A stretch of 53,280 bases of DNA from a virus (taxonomy: Duplodnaviria > Caudoviricetes): the IMG/VR virus record IMGVR_UViG_3300042549_001343, positions 1-53,280 of that record. One strand, written 5' to 3'. Positions 3,148 to 50,098 of this stretch are shown here, piece after piece (position 1 is the first letter of the stretch; each line of letters opens with the position of its first letter). A model generated the notes under the pieces. The model did no database searches. It saw nothing but the letters and a program-made list of their open reading frames with translations, and was not told the origin of the DNA. A program made the translations under genes and the position numbers.

Positions 3148-3470
3148 GTGATGTTCAGTACAGAAGTGACAACGTCAATTGATGATGCGGTAGAGGAGAC
3201 AACCTTCAACGCATCTCCAGTAATCAGCACAACCTTTTGGTCTCCGCCGACAACAACCAATGCGCCGCCGACAGGAACCGTGGCTCCTTCAACCAAGTAG
3301 TAATCTACCGCAGACCTTGTGAAGTACACGTCGACAGTTACTGGGCTTGTGAGCGTGTTTGCACAGGACATGCCAATGATGGTTGTCTGTGTTGACGCTC
3401 CGATAGTCACGACAGTTGCCGCCGATGTCCCGACAGATTTGTTTGCGTAAGATGTGAATACATTTGCCAT
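3144..3470 (-). CDS. Virion structural protein (beta-rich)
   Basis: 108-aa ORF coupled within the tail module. Confidence 0.75.
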   Translation of the reverse strand: MANVFTSYANKSVGTSAATVVTIGASTQTTIIGMSCANTLTSPVTVDVYFTRSAVDYYLVEGATVPVGGALVVVGGDQKVVLITGDALKVVSSTASSIDVVTSVLNIT

Positions 3471-3473
3471 GAT

Positions 3474-4226
3474 TTATCCTAGTGCGATTGCAAGAGCAAC
3501 GGCTGTACCTACTGGGTCGACTTGCAGATTTGCTTGTGCGGCGGCAATCACTGTTGAGCTTGAAGCAGACACCTTTTGCCACAAACTTGAACTCGTGTTG
3601 TATACAAGTATCTCTCCATTTGTTGGAGTTTGAGCAGACACATTGTGCAACTCGTCCATCTCATAGCCGTTTTGCACCTTAACAAGCAACTTACCTTGTG
3701 TTGGGTGAGCGTGGGCAACAACAGCTACATAAACCAAATGGTTAGGCGCATAAGGCTTAGTTGCAGTCAAAGTCCCTGCTGTGGTTGGGCTTAGATAAAG
3801 TTGCGCTCCATCTGTATATGCTGATGTATTGAGATTCTGAATCAAACCAATGATTGTCACATATCCATTGGAGTTATTAGATATGTCAGCAGTAATCAAA
3901 CCTAATGTTTGAGCTGAATTTGTGTCGTTATTTGCTTGTGCTTTGGTTACAGTTGGAAGTTGTCCTGTAGCACCAGAAATATAGACTGCTGTGCCTTTAG
4001 TAAGGGTTGCACCAGTAGAATTTCGCACTTGCTCAACAAGAACTGATGCTGGTGATGTTTGAGATACAGCAAGATCAACAGCCGCTCCAACTTGAGTAAC
4101 GACAATACTCCCATCTGCTGATGCAACAGATTCAATCTTGTCTGTATTTAGATTGCTGAAGTTGGTATCGACCTCCGTGTTGGTTAACGGCGATCCTTTA
4201 ACCGAGCGAAGGACGATTGTTGACAT
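3474..4226 (-). CDS. Tail/fibre-like virion protein
   Basis: KGSPLTNTEVDTNFSNLN N-terminal motif; ends AVALAIALG. Confidence 0.8.
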   Translation of the reverse strand: MSTIVLRSVKGSPLTNTEVDTNFSNLNTDKIESVASADGSIVVTQVGAAVDLAVSQTSPASVLVEQVRNSTGATLTKGTAVYISGATGQLPTVTKAQANNDTNSAQTLGLITADISNNSNGYVTIIGLIQNLNTSAYTDGAQLYLSPTTAGTLTATKPYAPNHLVYVAVVAHAHPTQGKLLVKVQNGYEMDELHNVSAQTPTNGEILVYNTSSSLWQKVSASSSTVIAAAQANLQVDPVGTAVALAIALG

Positions 4227-4238
4227 TTACGACCCCAA

Positions 4239-4685
4239 TCAAGATACGGTGATAGTCCAAGTGATGCTCATTGCATCATCAACACCCTTGTTGACCACAG
4301 AGAACACAGTACGACAGAGCATTGTTCCAGCAGAGGACGCATTGAATATGCCAGCCTCTGTCACTGCGCCTGTACCTGTGCCAGCAGGGAACGATGCTAC
4401 GTAAGTCGCCACGTTGGTAGAGCTTGTTCCGCTGGTCAACGCTGTGCGTGAGGCAGCAATGACAGTTTCAAGGGTTGTGTTACCGACCGCAGCAGCAGTA
4501 GTCCCTGTGCCAAGCTCCATGTGGCTCATCACGTTGCTGGCTGTTCCAACCATACGTGAGGCAATGAATGTCTTGCCAGAGGTGACAACCAAGTTCTTTA
4601 CTTCACGGCTGTCCTTGAGAGAGCCATCAGAACCGAAGACATCGATCTTCAAAGATCCGGTGATTTTTAATGATTCATCAAACAT
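4239..4685 (-). CDS. Virion structural protein (NLVV...TEAGIF motif)
   Basis: 148-aa ORF with RBS; motif shared with tail-collar/fibre N-terminal domains. Confidence 0.75.
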   Translation of the reverse strand: MFDESLKITGSLKIDVFGSDGSLKDSREVKNLVVTSGKTFIASRMVGTASNVMSHMELGTGTTAAAVGNTTLETVIAASRTALTSGTSSTNVATYVASFPAGTGTGAVTEAGIFNASSAGTMLCRTVFSVVNKGVDDAMSITWTITVS

Positions 4686-4697
4686 GTTTTTTCCTTG

Positions 4698-6783: not shown

Positions 6784-6788
6784 TTATA

Positions 6789-7100: not shown

Positions 7101-7264
7101 GCGGCCTCTTTGTGGAGTAGGACTGTGATGTCGTCTTGAATAGACACTTCATCATCCGTTGGTTTCTTGGGCTTTGTTTCTTCCAGAACGACCTCGTATC
7201 CCATTTCCAACAGGCTTTCGTCGTACACCACTATCCTGCCCGTGCGTTTGTTTCTCATAAACAT
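7097..7264 (-). CDS. Small protein (55 aa, MFMRNKRTGRIVVYDESLLEMGY...)
   Basis: RBS GGGAG before the ATG at 7264; ATGA-coupled to the next gene; overlaps the 3' end of the GT9 gene. Confidence 0.75.
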   Translation of the reverse strand: MFMRNKRTGRIVVYDESLLEMGYEVVLEETKPKKPTDDEVSIQDDITVLLHKEAA

Positions 7265-8183
7265 GCGATTCTCCCAACTGGAATACGGTCGTTGGCTGAA
7301 TTGACTGCAACGACTCGCAGATTTTGACACATCGCTCGTCCCAGCCTTTATCTCTTTGCCAGTAGCACCCGCTACACGGCATGTCTGATCCTATCCCAAC
7401 AACAGACTCAGAGCAATCAAAGACAAAGTCTTTGGTGGTTGGGCCAAGGACAGCAACTGTCGGCGTGCCAAGCAATCCGCCAATGTGCGCCATGCCACTG
7501 TCGTTGCCGTACATGACGGTGGCGCTGCCGATCAGTTCAAGGATCTCTGAGGCTGGCCGGTTCCAGTAAAGCCGAGATGATGGGATCTTTTCAAGAGACT
7601 CTCGATCTCTACCGGAGCCTATGGCTACGACTACGTACCCTGCATCTGTTAACAGATTAGACAGATCTGTCCATCTGTCGGCGTTCCAAGAACGTACCGA
7701 CCAAACACTTGTAGGTACAAGAACCGCCAGCTTCTCAGCTTTGGTGTACTTGGTTACCTTCTCTGGCCTCTTGGCTACACAATCTGGGATCTCGTAGTAA
7801 CGGCGCAGGTTCTGGACGTACCAGTTTGGCCTTGATCCACCAGACCCTCCGGATCGGAGTTGGCCCTGATAGTCAAGGTTTGCATCTGCAGAGAAATCTG
7901 TCTCTGGGCAAATGCTGACATTGGGGTGCGAAACAACGGAGAGCCAATCAACATGCCTCGTATGAAGCGTGACGTTGAACCCTTGATCTGCTATTCCGCA
8001 AGCCGCATACATTCCACAGACAGCGTCCCCAATCCCCACCGCAGAGACATAGAACGTAACGTCCTTCGTCTGCTTCGGCGGATCTCGTGGATCATCCTCA
8101 TACTCTGCGTAGTATCCAAGCTCAAGCAAAGATCTATCGTAAGCATGAAGTTTGCTGGTTTGTGTGTTGCGTATATAGAGCAT
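7152..8183 (-). CDS. Glycosyltransferase family 9 (heptosyltransferase-like) with extra N-terminal module
   Basis: GIGDAV, RSWNADRW, GNDSGMAHIGG..GTPTVAVLGPT and CSGCYW...C...C motifs of GT9; start could be TTG 8213. Confidence 0.85.
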   Translation of the reverse strand: MLYIRNTQTSKLHAYDRSLLELGYYAEYEDDPRDPPKQTKDVTFYVSAVGIGDAVCGMYAACGIADQGFNVTLHTRHVDWLSVVSHPNVSICPETDFSADANLDYQGQLRSGGSGGSRPNWYVQNLRRYYEIPDCVAKRPEKVTKYTKAEKLAVLVPTSVWSVRSWNADRWTDLSNLLTDAGYVVVAIGSGRDRESLEKIPSSRLYWNRPASEILELIGSATVMYGNDSGMAHIGGLLGTPTVAVLGPTTKDFVFDCSESVVGIGSDMPCSGCYWQRDKGWDERCVKICESLQSIQPTTVFQLGESHVYEKQTHGQDSGVRRKPVGNGIRGRSGRNKAQETNG

Positions 8184-8211
8184 AAAAAGGGAGGAGGCCG
8201 AAGCCTCCCCC
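8184..8211 (-). terminator. Rho-independent terminator after the major capsid gene
   Basis: GGGGGAGGC-TTCG-GCCTCCTCCC-TTTTT on the minus strand, 17 nt after the capsid stop. Confidence 0.85.
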
Positions 8212-8228
8212 AATTCCTCGGCAACTGC

Positions 8229-9227
8229 TTAGGCTTTGGAAACCAGTGCATTGACCAGAGCTTCAGGCTTGGTCACTTTGTAGCCGTAGACATTCAAACC
8301 ACGAACGATGTTACCGAATGTGGATTGAGCGCGGATGGTCTCGACGTTAGCCATCTGTGAAGCGAAAGAGATCGCATCACGAGTGCCAGCCAAGATGTTC
8401 CAGCCACGAACGTCAGCAGCAGTACCTGTACCGCCAGTAGATGAGTCGGAACCCAAATCTGTTGCGTTAGGCAGGCTGTTGGAGACGAACAGGGTGAAGC
8501 GGTCGATCATACCCAACTTACCGTTACGCAAAGGAGACTGACTGTCACCAGTCAAGTACGCTTGCTTCAGGTCAGAGTTCTTAATCATGGCGGCCATCCA
8601 TGAAGGAATAACCAACCAACGACCAGTCTCAGGAACGTCTTGCTCGTCCAACACTTGGCCCATGTCCAAAATCAAGTCCAACACGTTGGTCTTGCTGATG
8701 GCGCGGGTAGCGTAGGTTGTACCCAAGTTGATGTTAGCGGAGAGAACGCCAGCGGTTGCGCCTTTGTTGGCGGTTGCTGCGGCTGTCTTCACACCATTCA
8801 ACACGTCAGTGTCGATAGTGATCTTCATTTGCTCGCTGGCATCGTTGGTGAACATGTCCATCAACTTAACGTCGGCTTGAACGGCATCAACGTCATCCAA
8901 CACCACAGAGAAGTATTGACCTTGGTCAATGTTCAACTCTAAAGGAGTAGATGTCGGGACTTCGTTTGTCAGATTCATACCCTTGGTGTATGAACGGATA
9001 GTGATGGTAGGGATTGAACGGATATAGACTTTGTCGCCTTGACCCTTGATCTCGCCTTCCCAGTCGTTGTTGGTGATCTCTGCAAGAACAGTGCTCTTGT
9101 AGAACTTGGCTTGCAACTTGCCAGACCAAACTTCAGGGATGAACTTGGTTGTACTGGCAGTTGAATACTGGGGATATGCTCCGCTGATAAGGGCTGCGGA
9201 ACCTGAGCCTGCTACTCCAATTGACAT
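8229..9227 (-). CDS. Major capsid protein (P22 coat-like HK97 fold)
   Basis: FIPEVWSGKL...EGEIKGQGDKVYI...GLNVYGYKVTKPEAL; follows scaffold, precedes terminator. Confidence 0.9.
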   Translation of the reverse strand: MSIGVAGSGSAALISGAYPQYSTASTTKFIPEVWSGKLQAKFYKSTVLAEITNNDWEGEIKGQGDKVYIRSIPTITIRSYTKGMNLTNEVPTSTPLELNIDQGQYFSVVLDDVDAVQADVKLMDMFTNDASEQMKITIDTDVLNGVKTAAATANKGATAGVLSANINLGTTYATRAISKTNVLDLILDMGQVLDEQDVPETGRWLVIPSWMAAMIKNSDLKQAYLTGDSQSPLRNGKLGMIDRFTLFVSNSLPNATDLGSDSSTGGTGTAADVRGWNILAGTRDAISFASQMANVETIRAQSTFGNIVRGLNVYGYKVTKPEALVNALVSKA

Positions 9228-11582: not shown

Positions 11583-11800
11583 TTTCCGGCCTTCATGCAC
11601 TTGCCCATAGCAGCGCACTTCTTGGGGGCTGGGCAACCGGCGCATGGCTTGAATGCCTTGCCGCCATCCGCCATCTTCATGCTTTTGGCTGAAGCCATCA
11701 TCATTTTCTTGGGGGCTTTTTTGGCTGCGTCTTTCATAACTTTGCCGCCATCTTTGTAGCCTGCGGGGATCATTCCTTTTTTGGCAGTTTTGTTCATCAT
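11579..11800 (-). CDS. Small Lys/Met-rich basic protein with CxxC...C...C tail
   Basis: YKDGGKV and MADGGKA motifs; coupled to the portal gene. Confidence 0.75.
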   Translation of the reverse strand: MMNKTAKKGMIPAGYKDGGKVMKDAAKKAPKKMMMASAKSMKMADGGKAFKPCAGCPAPKKCAAMGKCMKAGK

Positions 11801-13821
11801 GCTGATACTCCTTGTTGAGGTTGAACGGTATTCATAGCAGGAGGCGCTTGGTCTCCGGCTGGGTTTGTTGCTTCGGGTGCTGCAATCTGTTGTTGTGGCA
11901 TTGTGGCTTGTAGTTGCTGCATTGCCATTTCGATCTGTTCTTTTTTGAACTTCATCATCTCTGTCGACGGAACCAATCTGTCGGTGTCCATCTGGAGACC
12001 CATTGCAGTTTCCCGCAACAGATAAGCAGCACCTTCAGGCCCAACGATTTGCAGGGCGATCTGGTTGCTCAAGACCAAGTTCAAGAACTCGTTGCGACGG
12101 ACTTGGATCTGCTCTTTGGCGATCAAGCCCATTGCTCCCTTAGCTACAACCTTGAAGTCACCCTTGATGAAAGGGTCTGGGTTGTAGATCATGTTGTGAA
12201 CGTAGAAGCGGGTGACCACCATCGTGACCACGTCGTCAATGGTTCCGACAGATGTCTTGATTCCCTTGGCGGCATTGTCCATCAGCATGGATAAACCAGA
12301 AGCTGTTCGGCCAGCACCACTTGCACCAGAGCCAGAGCCGTAGATGTAGTTAGGGATACCCGTTACTTCGTCCGCTTGTTTGGCAAACTGGTTGTAGATG
12401 CCCATCAGTTCAGCGGCCTTCATGTCAGGCATGAAGAAGCGAACCCCGGGCTGACCACCACCTGTCTTGTCGGATGTGGTTTGCCAGATCTTCCAAGGAT
12501 ACATCTGGGTAACGTCTTCGCCGTCGGCCAATCTGTCCACGGCCACTTCAACCTGTGGGCCAGATCCGATGCCCATGTTGTTCGCCAAAGAACGTGCGGC
12601 CGCATTGCACATGATCTGCACATCGCGCATGTTCTCGGGGAGGGCTGTGCCCCAGAATGCACCGGGGATAGATCTCCATGAGGCGATCTCGTATGGACGC
12701 TCGCCCAGTGGATCTGGGTTGATGACGGCCTTGATGGTGAAGCTGGCAACTTGCCAAGCATTGATTTCGTAGACCTTGTTGGGATCTATGTCCTTCATTC
12801 CCCACTGGATCAGGAGATCTCCCATCACTGGCCCCCAGAACTCCAATGCTTCGATCAGGTGATCGTTGTGCATTTGAGAATTGGTCTTGCCTTCTAGGTC
12901 ATCTCTCTGTTGGTCGCCGTACTCGTTGTATCGGTAGCCAGCTTTTCCGTAGCGGATAAGGACTTGGTCGATCTCGTCGTCGGAGTATCCGGGTATACCC
13001 TTCATGGATTCCAAGGTAGAGGCCGACAGGCGGTGTCTCTGGATCAGGAAGCCGTCATCCACGCCCATTGAGTTGGCGCTTGGGAAGATGTCGTAAGGGG
13101 AAACCCGAGATACCTCACGAACCATGTCTGTTACGACGATGGGCGTGAAGTCTGGCCCCCACTGGAGATTCTTCTTGCGGCGAACGCTTGGCCCCTTGAG
13201 GATAGCGGTCGGGAAGGTGACGAAGTCGTCGATGAAGTCCTGCATGGCAGGTTTGAACTTACCCTTGTCCAGTTGGTCTTGGATGACCTTGGACATTCTT
13301 TCTGCTGTGGCCTTGGCTTCTTCCTTGACTCGCAAAGAAATCATGTCTTGCACTTCGGCCAGACGCTTGCGGAATGTCTCTGGGTGGAGTTGCTGACCGG
13401 CCATCACGTAGTCTTCAGCTTCTGTGCGGACTAGGTCGATGATGGACATGCGAACTTCTGGCGGGATCTGTGGTTCTTGTGAGGGAACGAGATCGAAAGG
13501 ACGGTCTGCTTGAAGCATCACGTCCTGAATCCAAGACTTGGCAGCGGCGCACTTCACGTCTGTCAGCATCATGTAGATGTCTGAGCCACCAGTGTTGGAG
13601 ATGTCGATGGCTTTATCAGGATCGTATTCACCACGGCGCTGGCGCTCACACTTGAGCAGTCGCTCAGTGATGTCCTGCTTTGCCATCTTTGCTTGAGTCC
13701 AGCAGGAATTGATGTGCCCAGAGATGCCCATTGCGATCAGGTCGGAGTTATCCACGCCTTGTGCTTGGACGGCGCTGATGTCTGCTTCGACTGGCGCTGC
13801 TGCCTGATACACCTGTGTCAT
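11797..13821 (-). CDS. Portal (head-tail connector) protein
   Basis: 674 aa directly after terL; RVSPYDIFP, SGPQV, ADEVTGIP, RTASGLSMLM motifs. Confidence 0.9.
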   Translation of the reverse strand: MTQVYQAAAPVEADISAVQAQGVDNSDLIAMGISGHINSCWTQAKMAKQDITERLLKCERQRRGEYDPDKAIDISNTGGSDIYMMLTDVKCAAAKSWIQDVMLQADRPFDLVPSQEPQIPPEVRMSIIDLVRTEAEDYVMAGQQLHPETFRKRLAEVQDMISLRVKEEAKATAERMSKVIQDQLDKGKFKPAMQDFIDDFVTFPTAILKGPSVRRKKNLQWGPDFTPIVVTDMVREVSRVSPYDIFPSANSMGVDDGFLIQRHRLSASTLESMKGIPGYSDDEIDQVLIRYGKAGYRYNEYGDQQRDDLEGKTNSQMHNDHLIEALEFWGPVMGDLLIQWGMKDIDPNKVYEINAWQVASFTIKAVINPDPLGERPYEIASWRSIPGAFWGTALPENMRDVQIMCNAAARSLANNMGIGSGPQVEVAVDRLADGEDVTQMYPWKIWQTTSDKTGGGQPGVRFFMPDMKAAELMGIYNQFAKQADEVTGIPNYIYGSGSGASGAGRTASGLSMLMDNAAKGIKTSVGTIDDVVTMVVTRFYVHNMIYNPDPFIKGDFKVVAKGAMGLIAKEQIQVRRNEFLNLVLSNQIALQIVGPEGAAYLLRETAMGLQMDTDRLVPSTEMMKFKKEQIEMAMQQLQATMPQQQIAAPEATNPAGDQAPPAMNTVQPQQGVSA

Positions 13822-13831: not shown

Positions 13832-15268
13832 TCATGTCCATGCTTTGCTGGACGCTTTTTTAACTGGTCGTGCCCTCACCTCTACTCTGCCGCTTCGTGC
13901 TGCTAAACAGAGGTACTGGAGTGCATCGTGGGGATGGCTGTATTTGTCTTTGACTGGTCTGTCGCGGTATCTTTCACCAGCAACCTTGAGTCGTTCGTAC
14001 CTGAACCCGCCGAGGAAACCTTTGCGTAGTTGTCGGCAGTTCGGTGAGAGAAGGAACCCCGCTTCTCCCCCAGCCAACTTGTTGAGGAAGTACGCAACAG
14101 ATTCTCTGCGTGGTATGAAATCATTTGTGCTTGCTGGCTCGCTTGCAATTCCGGCCTCTAGTAGTTCTTGGTAGCAGGTTCTCTCATCTGCTTGAGATCT
14201 GTGTGTACCGGCTGGGTCGCCAGCGGAGATGAACCTCATTCCTGAGTAGGTTGTCATCAGGGCTGGTTTCACAATCTCCTGAGCAAACTGTCTGATGCCC
14301 ATGTCTTCGGCCACGAATTCTTCAAGGATGACAAGCTGTCCTCTTGAAGTTATCTGTCCAACAATGCAAGCAGGTGTGAGTCCGAAGTCCCATCCGAGGT
14401 AGAGAGGCAGTCCTCTATTGACTTCAAGCTCTTCTTCGGCGGTGTGGATTCTGTCGTTGTATTCTGGGTAGACCGGCTTGCCATCGGCGGTTGTTCCGTA
14501 CTGGCCGAGGACGAAGACTTTGATCCAGTCGTCCGTCTTGCCTTTGACCATCTTCAGGTAATACTCATACCCTTGAGGAAGATTGAACACATTCTCCGCT
14601 TCTGAATTCGGCTCATACCGGACATCATCGCCCTCTTGGATACGAAGGAGACCACCCGGTTGGTTAAAGAATTCCCATCCTTCGGGGGTGTCTTCTTCTG
14701 CAATTTTGTAATACCAGTGATCGTCGTCAGGCGGGTTGGTATCAAGGATAACGCATGGATGTACGGGGCCGCCGCCGTGAGTCTTCGCGGGGTAACGACC
14801 GATACGCTGAGTGACCATGTTGAAGACTTCATGCGGAACCTCTGAGGCTTCATTGATCCAAGCTCCAGTAAGTTCGAGGGATCTCAGCTTTCCGGTTTCG
14901 GATGCCTTGTCCAGCGCGATGAAGATAACTTCCAAGTCCAGCCCGTTGCCGTCTCCACAATCTTTGATCTTCATGTGGGCGGTGATTGGGGCATCCCACT
15001 TGATCGGGGCAAGTTCATCATTGAACCATGTTTGCCAAGTCTTGATCGTGGTGGACTTGAGTTCGGGATAGGTATTCCGAATGACCGCCCATCTTGCTTT
15101 TCTCCAGCCATTGTGGGGAGTTTGCTTGAGGGAGTGCTTGACGATCTCCATACAACAGGTTGAGGATTTTCCAGAACCTACTGGCCCTTTGATTCCTCGG
15201 ACATCAGCCATTGAGTTGTGGAACTCAGCGGCCACTTGTCCCGGCGGGTTGTATTGGATGACGGTCAT
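13832..15268 (-). CDS. terL: Terminase large subunit
   Basis: Walker A GPVGSGKS, RNTYPEL, AWINEA Walker B, DTNPP, GWDFGLTPA nuclease, HPHDALQY. Confidence 0.95.
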   Translation of the reverse strand: MTVIQYNPPGQVAAEFHNSMADVRGIKGPVGSGKSSTCCMEIVKHSLKQTPHNGWRKARWAVIRNTYPELKSTTIKTWQTWFNDELAPIKWDAPITAHMKIKDCGDGNGLDLEVIFIALDKASETGKLRSLELTGAWINEASEVPHEVFNMVTQRIGRYPAKTHGGGPVHPCVILDTNPPDDDHWYYKIAEEDTPEGWEFFNQPGGLLRIQEGDDVRYEPNSEAENVFNLPQGYEYYLKMVKGKTDDWIKVFVLGQYGTTADGKPVYPEYNDRIHTAEEELEVNRGLPLYLGWDFGLTPACIVGQITSRGQLVILEEFVAEDMGIRQFAQEIVKPALMTTYSGMRFISAGDPAGTHRSQADERTCYQELLEAGIASEPASTNDFIPRRESVAYFLNKLAGGEAGFLLSPNCRQLRKGFLGGFRYERLKVAGERYRDRPVKDKYSHPHDALQYLCLAARSGRVEVRARPVKKASSKAWT

Positions 15269-15546: not shown

Positions 15547-15563
15547 TGTTTCCTCTTGTAGTT

Positions 15564-15715
15564 GTTGGCTAATCGCTACGTCTATGGGTCATCCCCGCAG
15601 GTACGCCGACAGCATCCGCTTTCACCAACACGGCTGGAGACTGGTCGCTTCGATCTCAAGGCTTGTACTTCGCCCAGATACCAATCTCCATACGTCTTGA
15701 GATGGTTTGACCATC
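15564..15715 (-). ncRNA. c4/CI-like structured RNA with two stem-loop units in the late leader
   Basis: 11-bp stem TGGAGATTGGT/ACCAGTCTCCA; second unit GTTGGTGAAAGCGGATGCTGTC...GACGTAGCGATTAGCCAAC resembles c4-type phage antisense RNA motifs (recalled, not searched). Confidence 0.55.
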
Positions 15716-15772
15716 ATTGGCAGGGAATATACCCAGTTGATCCGCAATATGCAACACCTTTTCTGGCAATTC

Positions 15773-15881
15773 CTGAATCCAGACCTGATCTCAGACACTC
15801 ATTCCAGTAGAGTGGGTTATTGGGTTTATGGGTTATTGGGTTGCATCCTGTTTTCAGCTCTGATTTCAGAACTGATCTCAG
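15773..15881. repeat. Iteron-like array, copy B: 4x TGGGTT (8-bp period) plus 5x CTGnnnnCAG (12-bp period)
   Basis: TGGGTT at 15813,15821,15829,15837; CTG..CAG boxes at 15773,15785,15848,15860,15872. Confidence 0.85.
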
Positions 15882-16449
15882 AGAAAATGAGTATTTTGTA
15901 GAAAAATTTAGTAGCGGTGTTTGTATAGACCCCGTGGTTTTGGAGACTGGTGTAAGAAAAATGAACTTGTTCTTGTGAGTTACCTATAGCTAGAGGCTCG
16001 GGACGCACGTCACGCACGCACGGGCCACGCCACCCCGTCACCCCTGTAGCACCCGCATCGCACGCCGTGCCCACACAGTCCCTCTGGGACAGAGATCGAC
16101 AGATTTATAGGCTCAGAGACCAATTAAACGGTGATTTAGCCCTCTTTAGAGGGATAGGGGTGCATTGTGTGGTGGATTGATCGGGGTAAATGTACGTATT
16201 TCCTACGGAAACGTGCGTGATTTACTGAAACTTACTTTTTCCCTACCCAAAATCTCAATCATTTCAATGCCTTGCATAATGCACGTGTTGACTATCCCTG
16301 CCTATTTATCCCCTATATGAACTCCTATTGGAGTCGTGTATGGGACGCTGTGCCAAAGGCTTTTCCGGCTCAACCTTCGATTCAACCCCAAAACAACACC
16401 TATTTTCAACTTTTTTACGTAGTAATAGGGGTCGAAATGAAAAAAAGAC

Positions 16450-16479
16450 TTGACACAGCATCAACTTTCTGGTCAACTT
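16450..16479 (+). promoter_or_regulatory. Probable early sigma70 promoter
   Basis: Perfect TTGACA at 16450 preceded by an A-tract; -10 box is weak. Confidence 0.5.
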
Positions 16480-16484
16480 CAAAT

Positions 16485-16900
16485 CGTCAATTCGGCAACA
16501 AACCGAAAGCAGACTCAGTAAGTGCTAAAGCACCGTAGGACAGATAGGCTGTGACCCTTCGTAGAAGGGAGTAAGCAAAATCCTTCGGTGACGCTCCGAA
16601 CAAGTCTCTTGACCCCAACGGCGGGATGTAGCGTCGGACTCCGGAGGAGTTGTAACACGGTGGGAACCGTCAACAACACAGCACCGAAGGGTTGGACTAA
16701 GGCTTTGCCTTACTTCTAGAGGCCTCGACTTCATGCAGGTAGCTTCCCTTAAGGAAGAGGTTGCATCGAGCATCGAGATAAACACAGACTTTAGTCTGTC
16801 AACACTCACAGAGTTTCAACGGTATGGCAGTCTCTGACTGCTATGCACTGGACGCTCTGTCCTGTCTTTAGAGGCTCTGCCTCTATTTCGCAACTCACCG
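16485..16900 (+). ncRNA. Large multi-branch structured RNA / early leader
   Basis: Nested long-range helices 16570-79/16704-14 and 16580-90/16682-92 plus many local hairpins; no convincing ORF. Confidence 0.65.
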
Positions 16901-16917
16901 CATTCGAAAGGAATCCC

Positions 16918-18069
16918 ATGCGTGACTCACTCGTTCCCCTCTCCAAGCCCGAAATCCTCTGGATTTTCCGCCACCTCAACGGTGGAACCGTAGGTTTCAA
17001 CTTCGAGACCGTCCAAAAATTGGACTTGATCGACAGATTACTACTGGCCTTCTCTGAAGGACAGATTACCGATGCCATGTCAAATGGTATCCCAACCGTT
17101 AACCCCAAAGGGGTTGCCATCGATGGAGAAAGTCGTCCAATGCCACCTGCCACCAAGCCTTCGGCTCCCAAGTCATCAGACACTGATGCACTGCAAGCCC
17201 TCCGCAACTTACTGTCTCCGACAGTCGACGAAGCAACTGTTCGACAGATTGTTCTCGCCGAAGTCAAGAAAGCAATGGACGATAGTCCAGTTGTCAAAAT
17301 CGAGGTCGTAAGACCTGACGGTTCAGCCCACAAAGTGGAAGGCCACACCAGACCAGAATTTAAGAAAATTCTGACCAGAGCAACTGTCGGTATCAACATT
17401 CTGTTGGTCGGCCCTGCCGGTTGTGGCAAGACGCACCTTGGTCACCAAGTGGCTGAAGCCCTTGGTAGACCCTTTGCCTCGGTCTCTTGCACTGCCGGAA
17501 TGTCAGAGTCAGCCCTTCAGGGCTGGTTGATTCCTTCAGACGGTGGTTCTTTCCAGTACCTTACCTCTGACTTCGTCAGAATGTATGAGGAAGGCGGTGT
17601 CTTTCTGTTCGACGAAGTCGACGGTGCAGACAGCAATACTTTGCTGTTCCTGAATCAGGCTCTCGCCAATGGATCGTTCTTTTTGCCGATCCGGAAAGGT
17701 GCTTCACTGGTCAAACGTCATCCAGACTTTGTCTGTATTGCCGCCGCCAATACCTTCGGTACTGGAGCAAATCAGACTTATGCCGGTCGTGAACGACTCG
17801 ATGAGTCGACACTGGACAGATTCCGTGCCGGCGTCATCTCACTGGACTATGACCAGACTTTCGAAAGAAAGACTGTGGCTCCTGACCTGTTGGCTTGGGG
17901 TTGGGCGATTCGTAAACGAATCAATGAAGCCCGACTCCGTCGAATCATGTCAACTCGATTCCTGCTCGATGCAACGAAGTTGCTCAAGGCCGGTGAGACT
18001 GTCGAGGAAATCAAGGCGACCTTCTTTGAAGGTTGGTCAGCAGACGAAATCAAGAAAGTAGAGGTCTGA
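16918..18069 (+). CDS. MoxR/CobS-like AAA+ ATPase
   Basis: Walker A GPAGCGKT, Walker B LFDEVD, AAANTFG, STLDRF arginine finger; RBS GAAAGGA. Confidence 0.92.
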   Translation: MRDSLVPLSKPEILWIFRHLNGGTVGFNFETVQKLDLIDRLLLAFSEGQITDAMSNGIPTVNPKGVAIDGESRPMPPATKPSAPKSSDTDALQALRNLLSPTVDEATVRQIVLAEVKKAMDDSPVVKIEVVRPDGSAHKVEGHTRPEFKKILTRATVGINILLVGPAGCGKTHLGHQVAEALGRPFASVSCTAGMSESALQGWLIPSDGGSFQYLTSDFVRMYEEGGVFLFDEVDGADSNTLLFLNQALANGSFFLPIRKGASLVKRHPDFVCIAAANTFGTGANQTYAGRERLDESTLDRFRAGVISLDYDQTFERKTVAPDLLAWGWAIRKRINEARLRRIMSTRFLLDATKLLKAGETVEEIKATFFEGWSADEIKKVEV

Positions 18070-18070
18070 A

Positions 18071-18946
18071 ATGCTCCGCATTTATTCTGAATCACAGAAT
18101 CTTACGACTGTCCTTTGGGACAGTGTCACCGAACCCGAGGCTCTGCTTAAAGCAGACGGATGGAAACTCGATGCGAATAAGTCCTCCGGACTGAATCACT
18201 TCAGCCGAAAGGCTGATACAGCATGGCTCGGTGTCCCGTCTGTCGATGCTCTCCGCAAGGTCTTAACCAAAGGTTGGAAGGCCGGAGTCGAGCGAATCGA
18301 ACAGATTCCCCTTGGGGAATTGCCCGAACCGACAAGCATTCGTCGTCGTCGAGTCCGTGCCGACCAAGGCGACGAGTTGGACATGCAGGCCGTGTACCGT
18401 GGCGACGTAAGCAGGGCTTGGTCTAGAACCAAGCGACAGAGCAGAACATCTGTCCGATCTGTCTCGATTGTGATTGACCTTGCCGGAAATGCAAACGTCA
18501 CTTCAGAACAACTGTTCTGGAGAGGTGCATCAGGTCTGCGACTGGCTGACGAGTTGACCAAGGCGGGCTACTCTGTAGCCATCTACGGTGCGGCCGGTGC
18601 AGCGAACGTATCCTCCGAAGGCCAAGAGGACTTGGTGCAGTTTGTCGAAATCAAGGCAGAGGATTCTCCTCTGGACATGGACAGATTGGCCGCTCTGACT
18701 GGACTGGCTGGGTTCTTTAGAACCTCCCTGTTTGCCGGTATCTACTGGTCTTGTGACCAACTGGGCAAGCACACCTCTAGTGGTCTCGGTCAATCGGACA
18801 ACAAGCTGATTGCCAAGGCAATCAAGCACATGCCGATTCCACAGAATGCAATCATCCAACCTCCGGTTAAGACTCAGGACAAGGCCGAGGAATGGTTGAA
18901 ATCTGTTCTCGAACAGATCGCCAAACCTGAACAGCAGGTAGCGTGA
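18071..18946 (+). CDS. vWA-like (CobT-type) partner of the MoxR ATPase
   Basis: GDELDMQAVYRG pre-vWA motif; SIVIDLAGN degenerate MIDAS strand; adjacent to the AAA gene. Confidence 0.7.
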   Translation: MLRIYSESQNLTTVLWDSVTEPEALLKADGWKLDANKSSGLNHFSRKADTAWLGVPSVDALRKVLTKGWKAGVERIEQIPLGELPEPTSIRRRRVRADQGDELDMQAVYRGDVSRAWSRTKRQSRTSVRSVSIVIDLAGNANVTSEQLFWRGASGLRLADELTKAGYSVAIYGAAGAANVSSEGQEDLVQFVEIKAEDSPLDMDRLAALTGLAGFFRTSLFAGIYWSCDQLGKHTSSGLGQSDNKLIAKAIKHMPIPQNAIIQPPVKTQDKAEEWLKSVLEQIAKPEQQVA

Positions 18947-18953
18947 CGGAGTG

Positions 18954-19008
18954 GCAGGGGAAACCCTGCTCTTCTAAGTGTGCATTCAACCGAGTGCATA
19001 CCTAGAAG
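18954..19008 (+). promoter_or_regulatory. Two intergenic hairpins (RNase III-site-like or antitermination element)
   Basis: GCAGGG-GAAA-CCCTGC and CTTCTAAGTGTGCATTC-AACC-GAGTGCATACCTAGAAG with G-U pairs, no U-tract. Confidence 0.55.
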
Positions 19009-19036
19009 CATCCCGCTTCACATGAAAGGAACACAC

Positions 19037-19297: not shown

Positions 19298-19306
19298 GGA
19301 GCGAAT

Positions 19307-21339: not shown

Positions 21340-21350
21340 AAGGAAATCAC

Positions 21351-21704: not shown

Positions 21705-21727
21705 ACAAATTCACAGGAGAAAACACA

Positions 21728-22420
21728 ATGCAATTCATTACACACAACGAGAGGGAGTCCCTCATCGATGAGACCAATGGCTCATCACATGTTGGTGACA
21801 TCGAGGCAACCTACAAGGAGATCTGTTCTCTGTTCGGCAAGCCATTGTCTTATGACAAGGGGAAGGTCGACGCACACTGGGTCGTCAAGTTCAACGACGG
21901 AACAGTTGCGTCTATCTATAACTGGAAGAATGGCAAGGCATACATGGGAGACGAAGGTCTTGCGATTCAGTCGATCAGGACATGGAGTGTCGGTGGACTT
22001 GGTCAAGTCTCTAACACACTGGTGCAGATCACACTCGACCTACACAGGGAGTCGAAGGAGCCGACGAAGAGAGACCCATTCGAGGGGGCATTCTCCATGA
22101 TGGAGAACATAACCAAGACGAAGGGCGAATCCTATGCCGCACTGGTAGAGGTGACTATGCTCACCATGAAGCGCAAGCAATTGCTAGAGATGGTGATTGA
22201 TTTTCTGGAAAAGAAAACAGATATGCCGAAGAGGGTGAGGAGAATCCTCGAAGAGATGGACACAGAGATTTGTGTCCGCACAATCTCAAGAGCATGCCAT
22301 GCGTCAGGCCTTGACTTTGACAACGAAGATAAGGCCAATGAGTTAATGGAGTGGGCGGCAAAGATTGTGTCTCAAGAGGTCGAAGCTATGTCCGACATGC
22401 TCAAGAAAGAAGGCAAGTGA
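21728..22420 (+). CDS. Early hypothetical two-domain protein
   Basis: RBS AGGAG; LFGKP...KVDAHW...SIYNWK...WSVGG N-terminal domain common in phages. Confidence 0.75.
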   Translation: MQFITHNERESLIDETNGSSHVGDIEATYKEICSLFGKPLSYDKGKVDAHWVVKFNDGTVASIYNWKNGKAYMGDEGLAIQSIRTWSVGGLGQVSNTLVQITLDLHRESKEPTKRDPFEGAFSMMENITKTKGESYAALVEVTMLTMKRKQLLEMVIDFLEKKTDMPKRVRRILEEMDTEICVRTISRACHASGLDFDNEDKANELMEWAAKIVSQEVEAMSDMLKKEGK

Positions 22421-22421
22421 C

Positions 22422-22634
22422 ATGATAGATCTCCGCCTAGAGCGGGGTCATGTCTCTATGACTGTCGCATCACAACTCATGGGTGTGTCTCGCCAACGTG
22501 TGCATCAGCTACTCAAGTCTGGTCGCATCGTTGGTGCATTCCTCATGGACTGTGGCGACGGTCGAGAGATATGGTGCATCCCTCGCAACTCACTCAAGCA
22601 CAAGGAGAAGCCATGCTCGATCTCATTGGCGTGA
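22422..22634 (+). CDS. Xis/MerR-like helix-turn-helix DNA-binding protein
   Basis: ASQLMGVSRQRVHQLLKSGRI...WCIP. Confidence 0.75.
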   Translation: MIDLRLERGHVSMTVASQLMGVSRQRVHQLLKSGRIVGAFLMDCGDGREIWCIPRNSLKHKEKPCSISLA

Positions 22635-30732: not shown

Positions 30733-30734
30733 CA

Positions 30735-43712: not shown

Positions 43713-43905
43713 GGAAGTTCAACCTGAGGATAATTTCGTTTATCTTTGCAACTGCCTGAGTAAGAGTTGCATCTGTCGGTAATGTAGTCAACAACCCTTG
43801 ACGAGTGCCATTGATGATCTCGATGTTCTCTTTCATCGGAGCCAGTACCGCCGCAAGAGACGCATCCTTGATCGGCAGTAAGCTGGGGATAGCTGGCTTT
43901 CTCAT
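43705..43905 (-). CDS. Small virion-associated protein
   Basis: MRKPAIP...AKINEII.RL; coupled to the nozzle gene. Confidence 0.7.
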   Translation of the reverse strand: MRKPAIPSLLPIKDASLAAVLAPMKENIEIINGTRQGLLTTLPTDATLTQAVAKINEIILRLNFHE

Positions 43906-45713
43906 AACTCAGCAAGCTCTTTTGCAGTCTCTGCAAACTTAATTGCTTTGATTGGGACATTGCCAGTTACTTTGAATTGCCAACGATCACCCTTAAATCC
44001 AGAGGGAAGCCTGTACGTTAGCCTGTTTGTTATTTGTCTTGTTGTTACCAGCACTCCGTTGCAGTAAACAGATATTTGAATAAACCGACTGGACACCTCA
44101 TCAGGTTGCTCAGTCATCAAAGATCCATTGACGTACATACCATTAACTACATGAGCATTTAGCGCCGCCATTAAATTAACACCAGATGCAAACAGCGCCT
44201 GATTTGCCGCAGCTAATGCTGCGTTTTCTGCAATCAAGGCGGCGGCAAGATCAACGTCTTCAAAGTTTGCTTCAACCTGAAGCGCGGAAAAATTTACCGG
44301 CCTCGGGAGAATAAATAACTTTGACAGCCACTCGTATAACAAGAAGCTGTTTGCATTTCCTTCCCACTCGTGAATCTTGTCATCTAGAGAAAAATACAAC
44401 TGAGCAGAAGTGGGATCAACAAACGTCGCTTTTGTATAAACAGATGTTTCTGTCAGTGCAGAGGCCACTTCATTTCTGTCTAAGATAAGACAGCGCTCAA
44501 TATCATTTGTAACATCTTCCCAGAACAAATAGTACGCACCGTCAAGAATTGCCCCAAGCATGGTCGCTGGTTTTTTGCGTTGCCATTCGTCACGAGTAAA
44601 TAATCCGCTCGTAGCTAAGCCAGCAAAGCCTTGAGCAATCTTTACGATACCGTTTGGCGATGCATACATAACGCCAGTGTCATCAGAGACAATTGATCTC
44701 TTGGAGACACAAGGCTCAAACAAAGGAATCTTTGCTTGAGACATTGACTGCGGAGTTGAGCCGCTGATTACGAATGGATTTCCTCGTGTTGCAACAACAA
44801 CAGATTCTCCAAAGCAGCCAATGCCAACGATAGGGTATTCAACGGTAAGAGAGTATTCGGCAGGCCAAGCGTGCGGCACGTATGGCTCCGAGAAATAGAT
44901 TTCGTTTTCTCTGAACCCAACCAAGATGCCGTTTGCCATCGAGGAAATGCCCTGCATGTCAGATGGTGGTGGGTTATAGTTAGATGACTCTAGCGCCCCG
45001 CCAAGCTGAACAGCAGTCTTGGTATCTGAATAAGATGCTGTTCCAATGGCAACATCGGCTACTTTTAAATAGATGGTGCTGGTTGTTCCAGACACGGCAC
45101 GGTAGATTCTTTTTGTTGTTATGTTGTAGTCACCGGCAGGTGCTGCTGTTCCTAGCCCAGACACAGTGACAGTGCCGCCCGGAAGAACAGATAGGACAGA
45201 TGAGGCAGGAGATGGGGCTGACTCCTCTTCAATTGTTCCGAAGAGAGAGATGTAGGTAAATAGATAAACACGACTCTCTGCCGTGCCAGATCCACCGGCA
45301 GCAGATACAGTTGGCGCTGCCGTTGGTGCAGGCACACCCATCTCATAGTAGTCGCCGGGGAATGGAGCAGACCCAGTTTGTGAGAGAGTTGAGTTTGTTT
45401 TCTTTGGTGTACCTGATCCTGTGTAGTAGATTGGATCTTCGCCAGTATCAAAGATTGGACTCGGGACAACATTTACATCTGTTATCCACGAAAGCCACAA
45501 ATCATTTCCTGATGAATCTCTGTGCTTGTAAATGGACAAAGCGCTTGCAACGATGTTGTTTGCCCCAGTAACATCGTTCTGCTTATTCCATGCCCGAAGC
45601 TCTCCGCTATATAACTTGGTGTTGATTGCTGTCTCAGCCTCATTGTCTTTCAACAAAGCTACGCCAACCCTCGGGGCAATACCAGCAAAAGCAGATAACT
45701 TCAGTCCAGCCAT
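43902..45713 (-). CDS. Tail nozzle / tail tubular protein B-like (beta-propeller)
   Basis: 603 aa; F.GIAPR N-terminus, FSEPYVPHAWP, YRLPSG; precedes ejection genes. Confidence 0.75.
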   Translation of the reverse strand: MAGLKLSAFAGIAPRVGVALLKDNEAETAINTKLYSGELRAWNKQNDVTGANNIVASALSIYKHRDSSGNDLWLSWITDVNVVPSPIFDTGEDPIYYTGSGTPKKTNSTLSQTGSAPFPGDYYEMGVPAPTAAPTVSAAGGSGTAESRVYLFTYISLFGTIEEESAPSPASSVLSVLPGGTVTVSGLGTAAPAGDYNITTKRIYRAVSGTTSTIYLKVADVAIGTASYSDTKTAVQLGGALESSNYNPPPSDMQGISSMANGILVGFRENEIYFSEPYVPHAWPAEYSLTVEYPIVGIGCFGESVVVATRGNPFVISGSTPQSMSQAKIPLFEPCVSKRSIVSDDTGVMYASPNGIVKIAQGFAGLATSGLFTRDEWQRKKPATMLGAILDGAYYLFWEDVTNDIERCLILDRNEVASALTETSVYTKATFVDPTSAQLYFSLDDKIHEWEGNANSFLLYEWLSKLFILPRPVNFSALQVEANFEDVDLAAALIAENAALAAANQALFASGVNLMAALNAHVVNGMYVNGSLMTEQPDEVSSRFIQISVYCNGVLVTTRQITNRLTYRLPSGFKGDRWQFKVTGNVPIKAIKFAETAKELAEL

Positions 45714-48006: not shown

Positions 48007-48015
48007 TTTATTTTC

Positions 48016-48567
48016 CTATACAAACCATGTCACCATAGAATACCGCGTACCTGACAGAACCGGCAAAATTTCATGCGGGAACATAAAATTAGAAGGAAAC
48101 AAAATAGCCGCCCCTTTTGGTAATCTTATGGTCGTGTTGCGGTCAAAAAAAGCAAACTCCCCGCCTTCGTATCCGTCGTTAAGAGCGAATGAACAAGAAA
48201 TACAACGAGCGTGTTTTTCGTAAGAATCTGTGTGCTGGGCGTAAAACTGCCCTGTTTCGTAACGAAGTAGTTGATACCCGGTATCTCCTCTAATTTGAGC
48301 TTTGGGGTAAATCTCTAAATATTTTTGTAGCGCAGACCCCGCCGCTCTAAATAGCATTGCATCAAGCTGCGCTCTGATTTCTGTATTTTTGTTTATTATT
48401 TCTTTGGACAAAAAAATAGCCGAAGCAGATCGAATATTTTTGTTGACCACATCGTTATCGACAACTGTGTCTACCCATTCACCTGAGCCACTGAACTCAT
48501 TGAGCAAAGCATCGCACAAATCCAATGGGACAGTGTTTTCAAAAACTTTAATGTAGTCTTGAATCAT
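48016..48567 (-). CDS. 2OG-Fe(II) oxygenase (prolyl-4-hydroxylase-like)
   Basis: HTD...YEGGEF...FPS...HEILPV..G.RYS. Confidence 0.92.
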   Translation of the reverse strand: MIQDYIKVFENTVPLDLCDALLNEFSGSGEWVDTVVDNDVVNKNIRSASAIFLSKEIINKNTEIRAQLDAMLFRAAGSALQKYLEIYPKAQIRGDTGYQLLRYETGQFYAQHTDSYEKHARCISCSFALNDGYEGGEFAFFDRNTTIRLPKGAAILFPSNFMFPHEILPVLSGTRYSMVTWFV

Positions 48568-48576
48568 CTGCTACCC

Positions 48577-49179
48577 CTACGGACGTTCTTTGTAGTTGAG
48601 AAACTGTGTCAAGGTCTTGCGATATTTGCCCTCTTGTGATTGGACAGGCTCCACCTCATGCAGGACGCATCCGGGGAAAATAACTGTTTTATTTCTGACT
48701 GGCAATATGCGCACGCCAAATTCCGGAAATACAAGGTCGCCCCCAGTAAACTCATCTTCGCCAATAAACGTAACAATCGTAAAAGGCGTGCCATCATAGT
48801 GGCCCAAATAGCCTTCATTGTTTGCATACACATTCAGCAATGTTGTACGCCTATTTGTGTTTTTAAGGTGCATGTAGTTTGCTGAAGTCTTTTTGAGTTC
48901 ATCGACAATTTCTGGGATGGACGTCTTTGTGACCAGACGAAGTATCCCGGCGTTTTGCCACTCTGGGCTGTAATAATTATTTAAAAGCAGCCCCCGCCCT
49001 GTCTTCAAGATTCTTTCATCCTGTGTTTTTGCACTGAATGTTTCCTCAGGGTATTGCAACACACCCAAGTTGATTATGTGATTTACCTCATTTTCAATTT
49101 CTTCCAGTTCCTCAGGAAGAAATAAATCGTCAACGATGGCGTAATCAAGCGCCTCAACTCTGTGGGCAGTTACTTGCAT
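48577..49179 (-). CDS. 2OG-Fe(II) oxygenase (second, divergent)
   Basis: HYD...FTGGDL.F...FPG..LHEV.PV...R. Confidence 0.88.
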   Translation of the reverse strand: MQVTAHRVEALDYAIVDDLFLPEELEEIENEVNHIINLGVLQYPEETFSAKTQDERILKTGRGLLLNNYYSPEWQNAGILRLVTKTSIPEIVDELKKTSANYMHLKNTNRRTTLLNVYANNEGYLGHYDGTPFTIVTFIGEDEFTGGDLVFPEFGVRILPVRNKTVIFPGCVLHEVEPVQSQEGKYRKTLTQFLNYKERP

Positions 49180-49180
49180 G

Positions 49181-50098
49181 TTAAGCAGTCCTTTTCCACA
49201 TATACACAGTGATATATGGCTGGTAGTTAGCATTTGTGCCACTTGAACCAGCAGAGTCAATTATTGTTGTAATATTTGCTGTTGATGTGCCTACATTTAC
49301 ATTTGTTTGAGACGGTATTCCAATACCGGGTTGGCCTCCTCCCGCGCTATATTGAAAAAATCCGCCAATATTTCCGTCTTGTACGTGGGTATGCCCTGAA
49401 TCCGTAGAAGTTGCTGTGTGAGTGTGGCTAACAGTAATTGCATCTGCACTACCGCCTTCTTCTCCAACAGTGTCAAACAGTGCATTGCTTGAGTCAAAGC
49501 CAACCATGACCTTACCAGCCGCAAATGCAGTCCATGTGCCAAAACCAAGCAATGTTGCAGGGTTAGTACTAACAGAAGCATTTGTGTAGATAGATCCAAC
49601 TGGATACGAGGCTGCTAATGCCGCTTGTACAAATGCAGTAGATGCGGCAGATGTATCACTGTCACCAAATGTTTGAGTTGGAACAGCTAGAGTCCCAGAG
49701 ACTGTTGCCGCTCCAGAAATTGTGACAGTACTGCTAAATGTATTTGCCCCAGAGAACGTATTTGCTCCGGAGAACGTATTGTCCTTGTCTTGACCAGCAA
49801 AGTTATTCAACCCAGCCGCAGTAACTCGCAAAGAAATATTATCCCCGCCGGTAAAAGATCTACCTGTCGTACCCTCTTGTGCGCGAACAACTGTTAAAGA
49901 ATCTGTCGATCTAGCAGTTACTTTAATAATCTCAATGTTGTTGCTGGAGTCAATGATGGTGGCGTAAAAGTAGTCACCTGATGACAGAGTGGGGAACAGA
50001 GCGCCCTGACCAGAAGCAACAGTTACGGTTGTGGCCGTACTGTTGATTGAGGCAGATAGCGCGGCTACGGCGTTGTTGGTAAATTTCTGTTGAGCCAT
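49181..50098 (-). CDS. Tail fibre / collar-like virion protein
   Basis: RAQEGT N-domain, NTFSGA repeats, YPVGSIY...QPYITVYMWKRTA C-domain. Confidence 0.85.
   Translation of the reverse strand: MAQQKFTNNAVAALSASINSTATTVTVASGQGALFPTLSSGDYFYATIIDSSNNIEIIKVTARSTDSLTVVRAQEGTTGRSFTGGDNISLRVTAAGLNNFAGQDKDNTFSGANTFSGANTFSSTVTISGAATVSGTLAVPTQTFGDSDTSAASTAFVQAALAASYPVGSIYTNASVSTNPATLLGFGTWTAFAAGKVMVGFDSSNALFDTVGEEGGSADAITVSHTHTATSTDSGHTHVQDGNIGGFFQYSAGGGQPGIGIPSQTNVNVGTSTANITTIIDSAGSSGTNANYQPYITVYMWKRTA

Follow-up and report, generated by a model that had tools for sequence, protein, structure and literature searches.

Genome organisation

The stretch of DNA analysed here (the window) is the complete IMG/VR virus record IMGVR_UViG_3300042549_001343, 53,280 bp in length with a completeness estimate of 96%, from a tailed phage of the Caudoviricetes. 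Its genome is strewn with copies of a short asymmetric word, RACAGAT, which is the subject of this report; an initial annotation had drawn attention to one of its two forms, GACAGAT/ATCTGTC. Sequence from the phage was present in 24 entries for public sequencing runs, all of them Logan contigs of lake or freshwater metagenomes, with no RNA dataset listed. Megablast of 8 kb of the window against cultured phages yielded no match and the best match of the large terminase (TerL) protein among cultured phages was 45% identical (a Pelagibacter phage), therefore the phage has no cultured relative. Prophage or metagenome-assembled genome (MAG) relatives were found at 24 loci in genome contigs, mainly MAG contigs, but their taxonomy was inconsistent and no host call was therefore possible.

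The structural genes lie on the minus strand and include those for TerL (13832-15268), the portal (11797-13821), the major capsid protein (MCP; 8229-9227) and an internal virion protein (43902-45713). Inside the structural module is a GT9 glycosyltransferase-like (heptosyltransferase-like) open reading frame (ORF; 7152-8213, minus strand) found in the closest relatives only. A polyvalent virion protein of 2650 amino acids with an LPD38 domain is encoded at 32834-40786 on the minus strand; a comparable LPD38 protein of 2811 amino acids is reported to be packaged in the virion of phage phi24B. The tail-fibre module, also on the minus strand, occupies both ends of the record, at 1..3147, where the G+C content is lower, and at 50281..53279.

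An early operon on the plus strand (16843-22634) runs from an AAA_5 ATPase to a helix-turn-helix (HTH) gene. Between the divergent late and early operons is a non-coding stretch of approximately 1.3 kb (15547-16842) that holds only two copies of the word and is presumably the main regulatory region; short direct repeats resembling GGGTTATTGGGTT occur near 15812-15840. Replication genes comprise a DnaB-like helicase and a DUF1376 replication protein. Genes for recombination encode a YqaJ-type exonuclease (30112-30732, plus strand), SSB (30630-31127, plus strand), RusA (23991-24386, minus strand) and a DUF968/HNH protein, and the exonuclease, SSB and RusA set is kept in all six full relatives that bear the word. 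A Q-like antiterminator of the AlpA type (23500-24039, minus strand) was matched over its full length to PDB entry 7xya_G 'AlpA' in a profile search (E 3e-7). The phage is lambdoid in style, with regulation through the host RNA polymerase by the Q/AlpA-type antiterminator, a RusA protein and a giant virion protein like that of phi24B.

No RNA polymerase, DNA polymerase, primase domain or DNA methyltransferase was found among the window ORFs searched against PHROG, Pfam and NCBIfam, and the window contained no tRNA and no match to an Rfam family. The 'direct terminal repeats' of 123-127 nt in relatives resemble assembly overlaps. The gene calls underlying the statistics below are greedy ORF picks and are imperfect across 16-32 kb.

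Over-representation of RACAGAT

The heptamer GACAGAT/ATCTGTC was present in 60 copies, 28 on the plus strand and 32 on the minus strand, against an expectation of 8.95 ± 2.69 from dinucleotide shuffles, the largest of which reached 16; none of 100 shuffles attained 60. The reversed, non-complemented word occurred six times. The initial annotation had counted more than 50 copies by eye, and each of the 34 positions that it listed (27 of GACAGAT and 7 of ATCTGTC) was correct. All three of the commonest heptamers in the window overlap the motif (GACAGAT, 60; AACAGAT, 51; ACAGATT, 50), as does the commonest hexamer, ACAGAT, with 121 copies. CACAGAT and TACAGAT were rare by comparison with GACAGAT and AACAGAT (9 copies and 1 copy), and the true unit is therefore RACAGAT, broader than the word first noticed. 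Its 111 sites (60 GACAGAT, 51 AACAGAT) extend from 910 to 49907, 58 on the plus strand and 53 on the minus strand, at approximately 2.1 per kb.

Enrichment was assessed against a synonymous-codon shuffle that keeps each protein sequence and the codon usage of each gene (300 shuffles). RACAGAT was observed 111 times against 36.5 ± 4.6 (maximum 52) and GACAGAT 60 times against 21.2 ± 3.1; disappearance under such a codon-preserving shuffle was the result named beforehand as fatal to the claim, and the enrichment survives it. With a conservative standard deviation (SD; at least Poisson) the two words of the window gave z values of 8.3 and 7.5, whereas the best word in two motif-free relatives reached only 4.7 and 5.7. 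The other explanation foreseen was lower-order k-mer bias. A maximal-order Markov model does predict GACAGAT (60 observed, 52.7 expected, z 1.8), but only because the hexamers of the word themselves carry the signal, and the core ACAGAT exceeds its prediction (121 against 82, z 6.5). The signal is the core ACAGAT with a 5' purine, and not low-order composition.

For three close genomes taken together a first-order Markov model expected 26 copies, and 190 were observed. In the three closest genomes each of the positions R, A, C, A, G, A and T stood at approximately seven times the first-order Markov expectation and single-base variants at approximately one time or lower, a sharp per-position specificity typical of direct base read-out. 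The flanks hold no further conserved letters, except for a mild preference for T on the 3' side of the word and an avoidance of T on the 5' side. T directly 5' of GACAGAT was found 7 times against 16.2 expected (z -3.9; window, all TGACAGAT positions); a GACAGAT preceded by T would create TTGACA or TGACA, resembling a -35 promoter element.

The top heptamers of 80 unrelated loci reached similar z values under a simple Markov null, as if other phages also possessed private words. This reading was rejected: most of those heptamers are strongly one-stranded, a coding effect, or belong to tandem arrays (L149). The array in that unrelated phage (L149 12969-14402, and also L148) is a 9-bp tandem repeat with CGTGCAG in about 40 copies inside a gene; it is repetitive coding sequence and unlike a word scattered over a genome. 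In the open-access literature searched, neither RACAGAT nor any similar phage heptamer that is both strand-symmetric and private to a lineage was found described.

Independence of strand and reading frame

Relative to the synonymous shuffle, sense copies in the window numbered 59 against 16.1 (3.7-fold) and antisense copies 42 against 10.0 (4.2-fold), and enrichment was between 3.1- and 4.9-fold in each of the six frames. Ten of the 111 sites are intergenic, equal to the non-coding share of the window. Seven genomes pooled gave 344 sense and 284 antisense sites and a further 72 in intergenic DNA, again close to the non-coding share. The early remark that sites fall in different frames and in non-coding DNA thus extends to all frames and both strands. 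Since sense and antisense copies are equally enriched, and in every frame, the signal acts on duplex DNA and not on RNA or protein.

A signal for the replication or transcription machinery, be it a lagging-strand priming site (primer ACAGAU on template ATCTGTY) or a pause resembling the class II signal of phage T7, is very improbable. Known primase sites are 3-5 nt long, although priming sites would be needed densely on both strands. The published core of the T7 signal in the non-template strand, ATCTGTT, is the reverse complement of AACAGAT and is matched exactly by 51 of the 111 sites; the T7 signal is described as functioning in one orientation, with a single-subunit phage RNA polymerase and in few copies per genome (10.1101/2021.01.11.426313), whereas the word in the window occurs equally in both orientations. 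AACAGAT was found 25 times sense and 25 times antisense, and so did not favour the non-template strand. Among the ORFs searched, none encoded a recognisable T7-like RNA polymerase, a primase or a DNA polymerase, and a six-frame search of the window with PF00940 gave no match, as was also the case for the control genomes. With no T7-like polymerase found and the orientation symmetric, the match to ATCTGTT is treated as a coincidence. Moreover, a Q-like antiterminator for the host RNA polymerase is present, and the phage would be harmed by pause signals that lay on either strand throughout its genes.

Spacing, doublets and orientation along the genome

Spacing of the sites was near-Poisson (coefficient of variation 1.09). 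Both orientations were intermixed in every bin, with neither polarity nor terminal clustering (12 bins, seven genomes), so that the orientation polarity along the replicon that marks KOPS (FtsK-orienting polar sequences) and AIMS (architecture imparting sequences) was absent, and the KOPS-like polar cue proposed in the initial annotation finds no support. The densest zone was the early operon, with 26 sites (4.5 per kb); the 14 copies of GACAGAT counted between 16.1 and 20.6 kb agree with the earlier estimate of about 14 in the densest part of the genome. Density in this operon was approximately twice the genome average in five of seven motif-bearing genomes, and its pooled sites, 80 sense and 55 antisense, showed no consistent sense bias.

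Same-strand doublets with sites 8-10 bp apart were approximately ten-fold over-represented, at 21 against 2.0 ± 1.4 (maximum 8 in 2000 random placements), and those of the core ACAGA numbered 53 against 11.8 ± 3.4, although these counts, like those of the composites, pool related genomes and the events are not all independent. An example is the head-to-tail doublet GACAGATcgGACAGAT at 18448..18463 on the minus strand, whose sites are 9 bp apart from centre to centre, one helical turn. Further doublets lie on the plus strand at 7651-7666, 20091-20107 and 45186-45201 and on the minus strand at 7665-7679. The palindromic composites ACAGATCTGT and TCTGTnnACAGA were also over-represented. The densest cluster, five copies in 36 bp (7644..7679), is located within the GT9-like ORF and consists of two palindromic composites, ATCTGTT·AACAGAT and GACAGATCTGTC. 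It is identical in G007 and present as a six-core variant in G006, two relatives at approximately 80% nucleotide identity.

Comparison with Chi-rich phages

The accumulation of Chi sites in phages (PMC12315714) is the closest known case, and a Chi-like signal is the main rival to a phage-read word, although an unlikely one. RACAGAT would in that case attenuate a host helicase-nuclease of the RecBCD/AddAB type and would have accumulated for survival and for use of host recombination. Precedent is provided by Chi-rich lambdoid phages and P1: that report describes 23 Chi sites in LLS, 20 of them on one strand, 32 in MD8, all on one strand, and 50 in P1. There, as here, the word is short, non-palindromic and the most frequent k-mer, is placed inside genes without regard to codon usage, and is gained and lost with the shuffling of modules; the lambdoid style of the window phage is in keeping with this. 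The change of the word between clades of differing G+C content (see below) is likewise reminiscent of the difference between the Chi of E. coli and that of Pseudomonas.

Several features fit this less well. Chi sites in LLS and MD8 are clustered at one end of the genome and lie on one strand (20/23 and 32/32), whereas the window has 58 and 53 on its two strands and no terminal clustering. Its density is approximately four times that of LLS or P1 (2.1 against about 0.5 per kb). Doublets at exactly one helical turn are unexpected for Chi, and the word is unlike the known proteobacterial Chi sequences GCTGGTGG and GCTGGCGC. The Chi-rich class is described as lacking a Rec module (PMC12315714) and a RecBCD inhibitor, whereas the window phage encodes its own YqaJ exonuclease, SSB and RusA.

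Relatives and turnover of sites

Retrieval by TerL yielded 80 IMG/VR loci and ten full records. Loci with TerL at least 92% identical carry RACAGAT, those at 76-87% carry AACAGAY (the first letter being A instead of R, and the seventh Y or in part H) and those at 69% or below show no enrichment of ACAGA. Among the full records, AACAGAT was counted 59, 64, 64, 45, 42 and 49 times in the six that bear the motif and 8, 10, 6 and 19 times in the four that do not. The word tracks the phylogeny of the phages and changes along the lineage; the motif-bearing genomes themselves range in G+C content from 0.49 to 0.61.

Aligned window sites were letter-identical in 52 of 97 cases in G006 and 49 of 95 in G007. 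Random 7-mers gave 26.2 ± 4.3 and 27.4 ± 4.4, respectively, and none of 5000 simulations reached the observed values. Shared sites nevertheless numbered only 61 of 97 (G006) and 59 of 95 (G007), such that approximately 40% turn over, while totals remained equal at 97 against 102 (G006) and 95 against 96 (G007). With identity about twice that of random 7-mers and equal totals, the sites are under purifying selection and their density is kept through turnover.

Sister lineages without the ACAGA word (G011 and G012; loci L120-L125) carry another enriched word, the palindrome GCTCGAGC. Under the synonymous shuffle GCTCGAG was observed 48 times against 15.8 in G011 and 48 times against 20.7 in G012. 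G008 (L111-L113) has both words, with CTCGAG at 82 against 28. CGAGCTC was counted 22 times in L027 and L028; CCCCCCC was counted 53, 32 and 28 times in L027, L028 and L047, which may reflect a homopolymer tract or an assembly artefact.

A non-adaptive drive could raise the frequency of a word with no reader that benefits, through context-specific mutation or mismatch-repair bias, or through biased gene conversion or packaging during co-infection. Drives of this kind are the proposed origin of the uptake signal sequences (USS) and DNA uptake sequences (DUS) of bacteria and of HIP1. The second word of the sister lineages suggests that word-making may be general in the family and the high turnover of sites is compatible with such a drive. 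Nonetheless this origin is decidedly improbable: no single precursor variant was selectively depleted (variants at positions 4-5 were mildly low, others near expectation), the conservation of sites at about twice the level of random 7-mers points to selection, and mutation bias leaves the phasing of the doublets unexplained.

The fibre module and bacterial genomes

The foreign fibre module departs from the rest of the genome. It holds approximately one site in 5.6 kb, which is what chance would give, while the backbone has 2.2 per kb: a single site, at 910, lies in the first part and none in the second. Even G006 and G007, among the closest full relatives, lack a homologue of this module. The near-absence of GACAGAT from this region (48-53.3 kb and 1-3.4 kb) had been pointed out at the outset, and that form was indeed found only at its edges, at 49901 and 3432.

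Homologues of the fibre protein encoded at 1996-3147 (minus strand) were present in 80 IMG/VR loci at 42-97% identity over the best aligned segment, mostly the receptor-binding part. Only four of these loci (L135, L194, L206 and L207) share the backbone of the window, and they hold 1.2-2.0 sites per kb. The others hold 0-0.7 per kb with one exception, L165 (1.17), and have no match, or only a distant one (at most 54% for the MCP), to the backbone markers tested. Dozens of otherwise unrelated phages (L136-L214), of G+C content 0.36-0.62, carry the receptor-binding part at 50-80% identity, and the similarity of this part between phages shows extensive exchange of fibre modules, as judged by sequence comparison.

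RACAGAT was not enriched in any of the 707 bacterial genomes sampled (5 MAG, 401 Burkholderiales and 301 Gammaproteobacteria). The five MAG genomes with related contigs had 0.12-0.19 copies per kb, and the maxima, read off tables whose tallies include a few genomes flagged as unpublished, were approximately 0.47 per kb among the Burkholderiales (G141) and approximately 0.60 per kb among the Gammaproteobacteria (G643), in comparison to 2.1 per kb in the phage. A host-read Chi is disfavoured both by the lack of any sampled genome above about 0.6 per kb and by the lack of the word in unrelated phages whose fibre proteins are 50-80% identical. The Chi-like cue of the initial annotation is accordingly weakened by these genomes and by the phage's own exonuclease, SSB and RusA, and is kept as a rival. 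Counts in the fibre module, in loci with fibre homologues and in bacterial genomes favour a word private to the phage lineage but are not decisive, since similarity of fibres is no proof of a shared host.

Genes that co-occur with the word

Five features were shared by all, or by five, of the six full genomes with the motif and were missing from all four without it: the AAA_5 ATPase, the DUF7192 protein, a 65-aa ORF, a 163-aa ORF and residues ~1196-2548 of the polyvalent protein. Co-occurrence was best for the AAA_5 (MoxR/CobS-like) ATPase and DUF7192 protein (16843..18946, plus strand), found in six and five of the six, respectively. Among the 80 TerL loci, those with the word in which that side of TerL was captured always had the AAA_5/DUF7192 operon and motif-free loci never did.

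An 89-aa HTH protein (22365..22634, plus strand) is a candidate reader. It is present in all six motif-bearing genomes, with a 35%-identical homologue in the motif-free G011, and its match to HTH_17 (E 0.0023) was below the cut-off. The 126-aa ORF at 22505-22885 on the minus strand at first seemed the best-conserved gene linked to the motif and was rejected as the antisense shadow of this HTH gene; its high tblastn identities arise because the underlying DNA is conserved, and it is not a gene. The HTH proteins singled out in the initial annotation (22422, 22901 and 31650) were not tied to the motif by any analysis performed here. Profile searches against the PDB with the DUF7192 protein, the HTH protein and a 255-aa early protein gave nothing significant.

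The word might alternatively be a modification target, methylated or given a bulkier adduct by a phage enzyme, perhaps one housed as a domain within the injected 2650-aa polyvalent protein; it would so serve as a dense self mark. Short (7-bp), asymmetric, R/Y-degenerate and sharply defined, it resembles the targets of methyltransferases of the Type IIG, Type III and BREX type; to our knowledge, genomes do not usually hold an excess of the targets of known modification systems that they carry. In the polyvalent protein it is the C-terminal ~1350 residues that follow the motif (6/6 motif-bearing genomes, 0/4 motif-free), and a role in modifying incoming DNA has been proposed for polyvalent virion proteins such as DarB of P1 (PMC5512222). 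However, neither the window ORFs searched nor five segments of the polyvalent protein, large parts of which have no assigned fold, yielded a DNA methyltransferase domain, and none common to all motif-bearing genomes was found. The sole methyltransferase-like match (class I, 32211-32837) was weak and confined to the closest relatives, and the predicted fold of polyvalent residues 1196-1720 gave only weak acetyltransferase-like matches. Modification is on balance improbable.

A proposed recognition word private to the phage lineage

The best explanation is that RACAGAT is a recognition word in duplex DNA, private to this phage lineage and kept by selection at about 2 per kb wherever the backbone tolerates it. 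We tentatively propose that its copies are dispersed binding sites for a DNA-binding protein encoded by the lineage and constitute a genome-wide self mark. Independence of frame and strand, conservation of sites and lineage specificity support the initial suggestion of a selected DNA signal, and of the readers suggested with it a protein-binding site fits best, given the sharp specificity and the one-turn doublets. From these patterns we infer a protein as the reader, a phage gene as its source and the purpose of its binding. The reader would be a sequence-specific protein, probably small, binding as a monomer and encoded in the early or replication region. One protein would occupy a single site, and two neighbouring molecules would occupy a helical-turn doublet or a palindromic composite. 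The whole set of sites would label or coat the chromosome of the phage as 'self', perhaps so that it can be loaded, protected or compacted, and the direction of transcription would be irrelevant. The co-variation of the early region with the motif, namely of the AAA_5/DUF7192/65-aa operon and the HTH protein, may be counted in favour.

For a monomeric reader that a phage encodes and that recognises dispersed asymmetric sites, the stoperators of the Cluster A mycobacteriophages are the nearest parallel. As described in PMC9283540, they too are asymmetric and dispersed through the genome, and their specificity evolves with the lineage; they are, however, 13-mers in just over 20 copies, confined to short spaces between genes and aligned with the direction of transcription, whereas the word described here is a 7-mer in 111 copies, approximately 90% of them inside genes and equal in orientation. 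Highly iterated words of cellular genomes offer a further comparison. HIP1 of cyanobacteria and the USS and DUS of Pasteurellaceae and Neisseriaceae occur every ~0.5-1 kb, mostly within genes, in all frames and in a lineage-specific manner. HIP1 is palindromic, USS and DUS are 9-12 bp long, and all are properties of cellular genomes that appear in phages only secondarily; RACAGAT, in contrast, belongs to one phage lineage and to no cellular genome among those sampled.

A number of points weigh against a phage-encoded reader. We know of no precedent, on a search that was not exhaustive, for more than 100 intragenic binding sites of a phage protein. No reader was identified: approximately 55 ORFs or segments compared with PHROG, Pfam and NCBIfam gave only weak HTH matches. 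Two AlphaFold models of low confidence, one for the early protein of 255 aa (pLDDT 62) and one for residues 1196-1720 of the polyvalent protein (pLDDT 64), had no Foldseek match at E<=0.001 and resembled no DNA-binding fold; the second gave only weak GNAT-like rows. The AAA_5 and DUF7192 proteins are, from their sequences, probably a chaperone-type (MoxR-type) pair with no link to DNA. The recognition helix of the HTH protein does not covary with the switch from RACAGAT to AACAGAY. About ten genes fit the association with the motif equally well, and because a single phylogenetic split underlies that association no one gene is singled out.

The arguments from symmetry and from foreign DNA are also qualified. 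In P1, Chi sites counted here numbered 31 forward and 19 reverse, intermixed; a host-read Chi can thus occupy both strands, so strand symmetry excludes no Chi-like role. That foreign genes lack the word was considered as a general rule and rejected, being true for the window and G006 and false in four mid-clade genomes. Mid-clade genes that lack homologues in all six of the other genomes with the motif match the backbone in motif density, and the argument from foreign DNA therefore concerns the window and G006 alone. The preferred explanation and the four rivals together leave the remaining probability to something else.

A bolder form of the preferred explanation is rather unlikely in its entirety. 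It holds that some 120 positions in the chromosome carry a 7-bp 'identity word' peculiar to the lineage, by which the phage's own protein tells its DNA from that of the host and of competitors. Word and reader would co-evolve, giving RACAGAT, then AACAGAY, and in sister lineages the palindrome GCTCGAGC; acquired modules would be gradually rewritten, and the phage would mark itself by sequence and not by chemical modification.

Dense selected words such as Chi, uptake sequences, KOPS and stoperators have each revealed a machine that handles DNA. The word described here is unusually dense and strand-symmetric, and a single, widespread group of uncultivated phages from lakes has it to itself. If a host nuclease reads it, the word would reveal the Chi of an uncultivated freshwater bacterium and would extend the 'Chi-rich phage' strategy to phages with recombination genes of their own. 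If a phage protein reads it, the word would represent a novel means of chromosome labelling by a virus, and would offer a handle for assigning metagenomic fragments to the lineage and for dating the exchange of modules.

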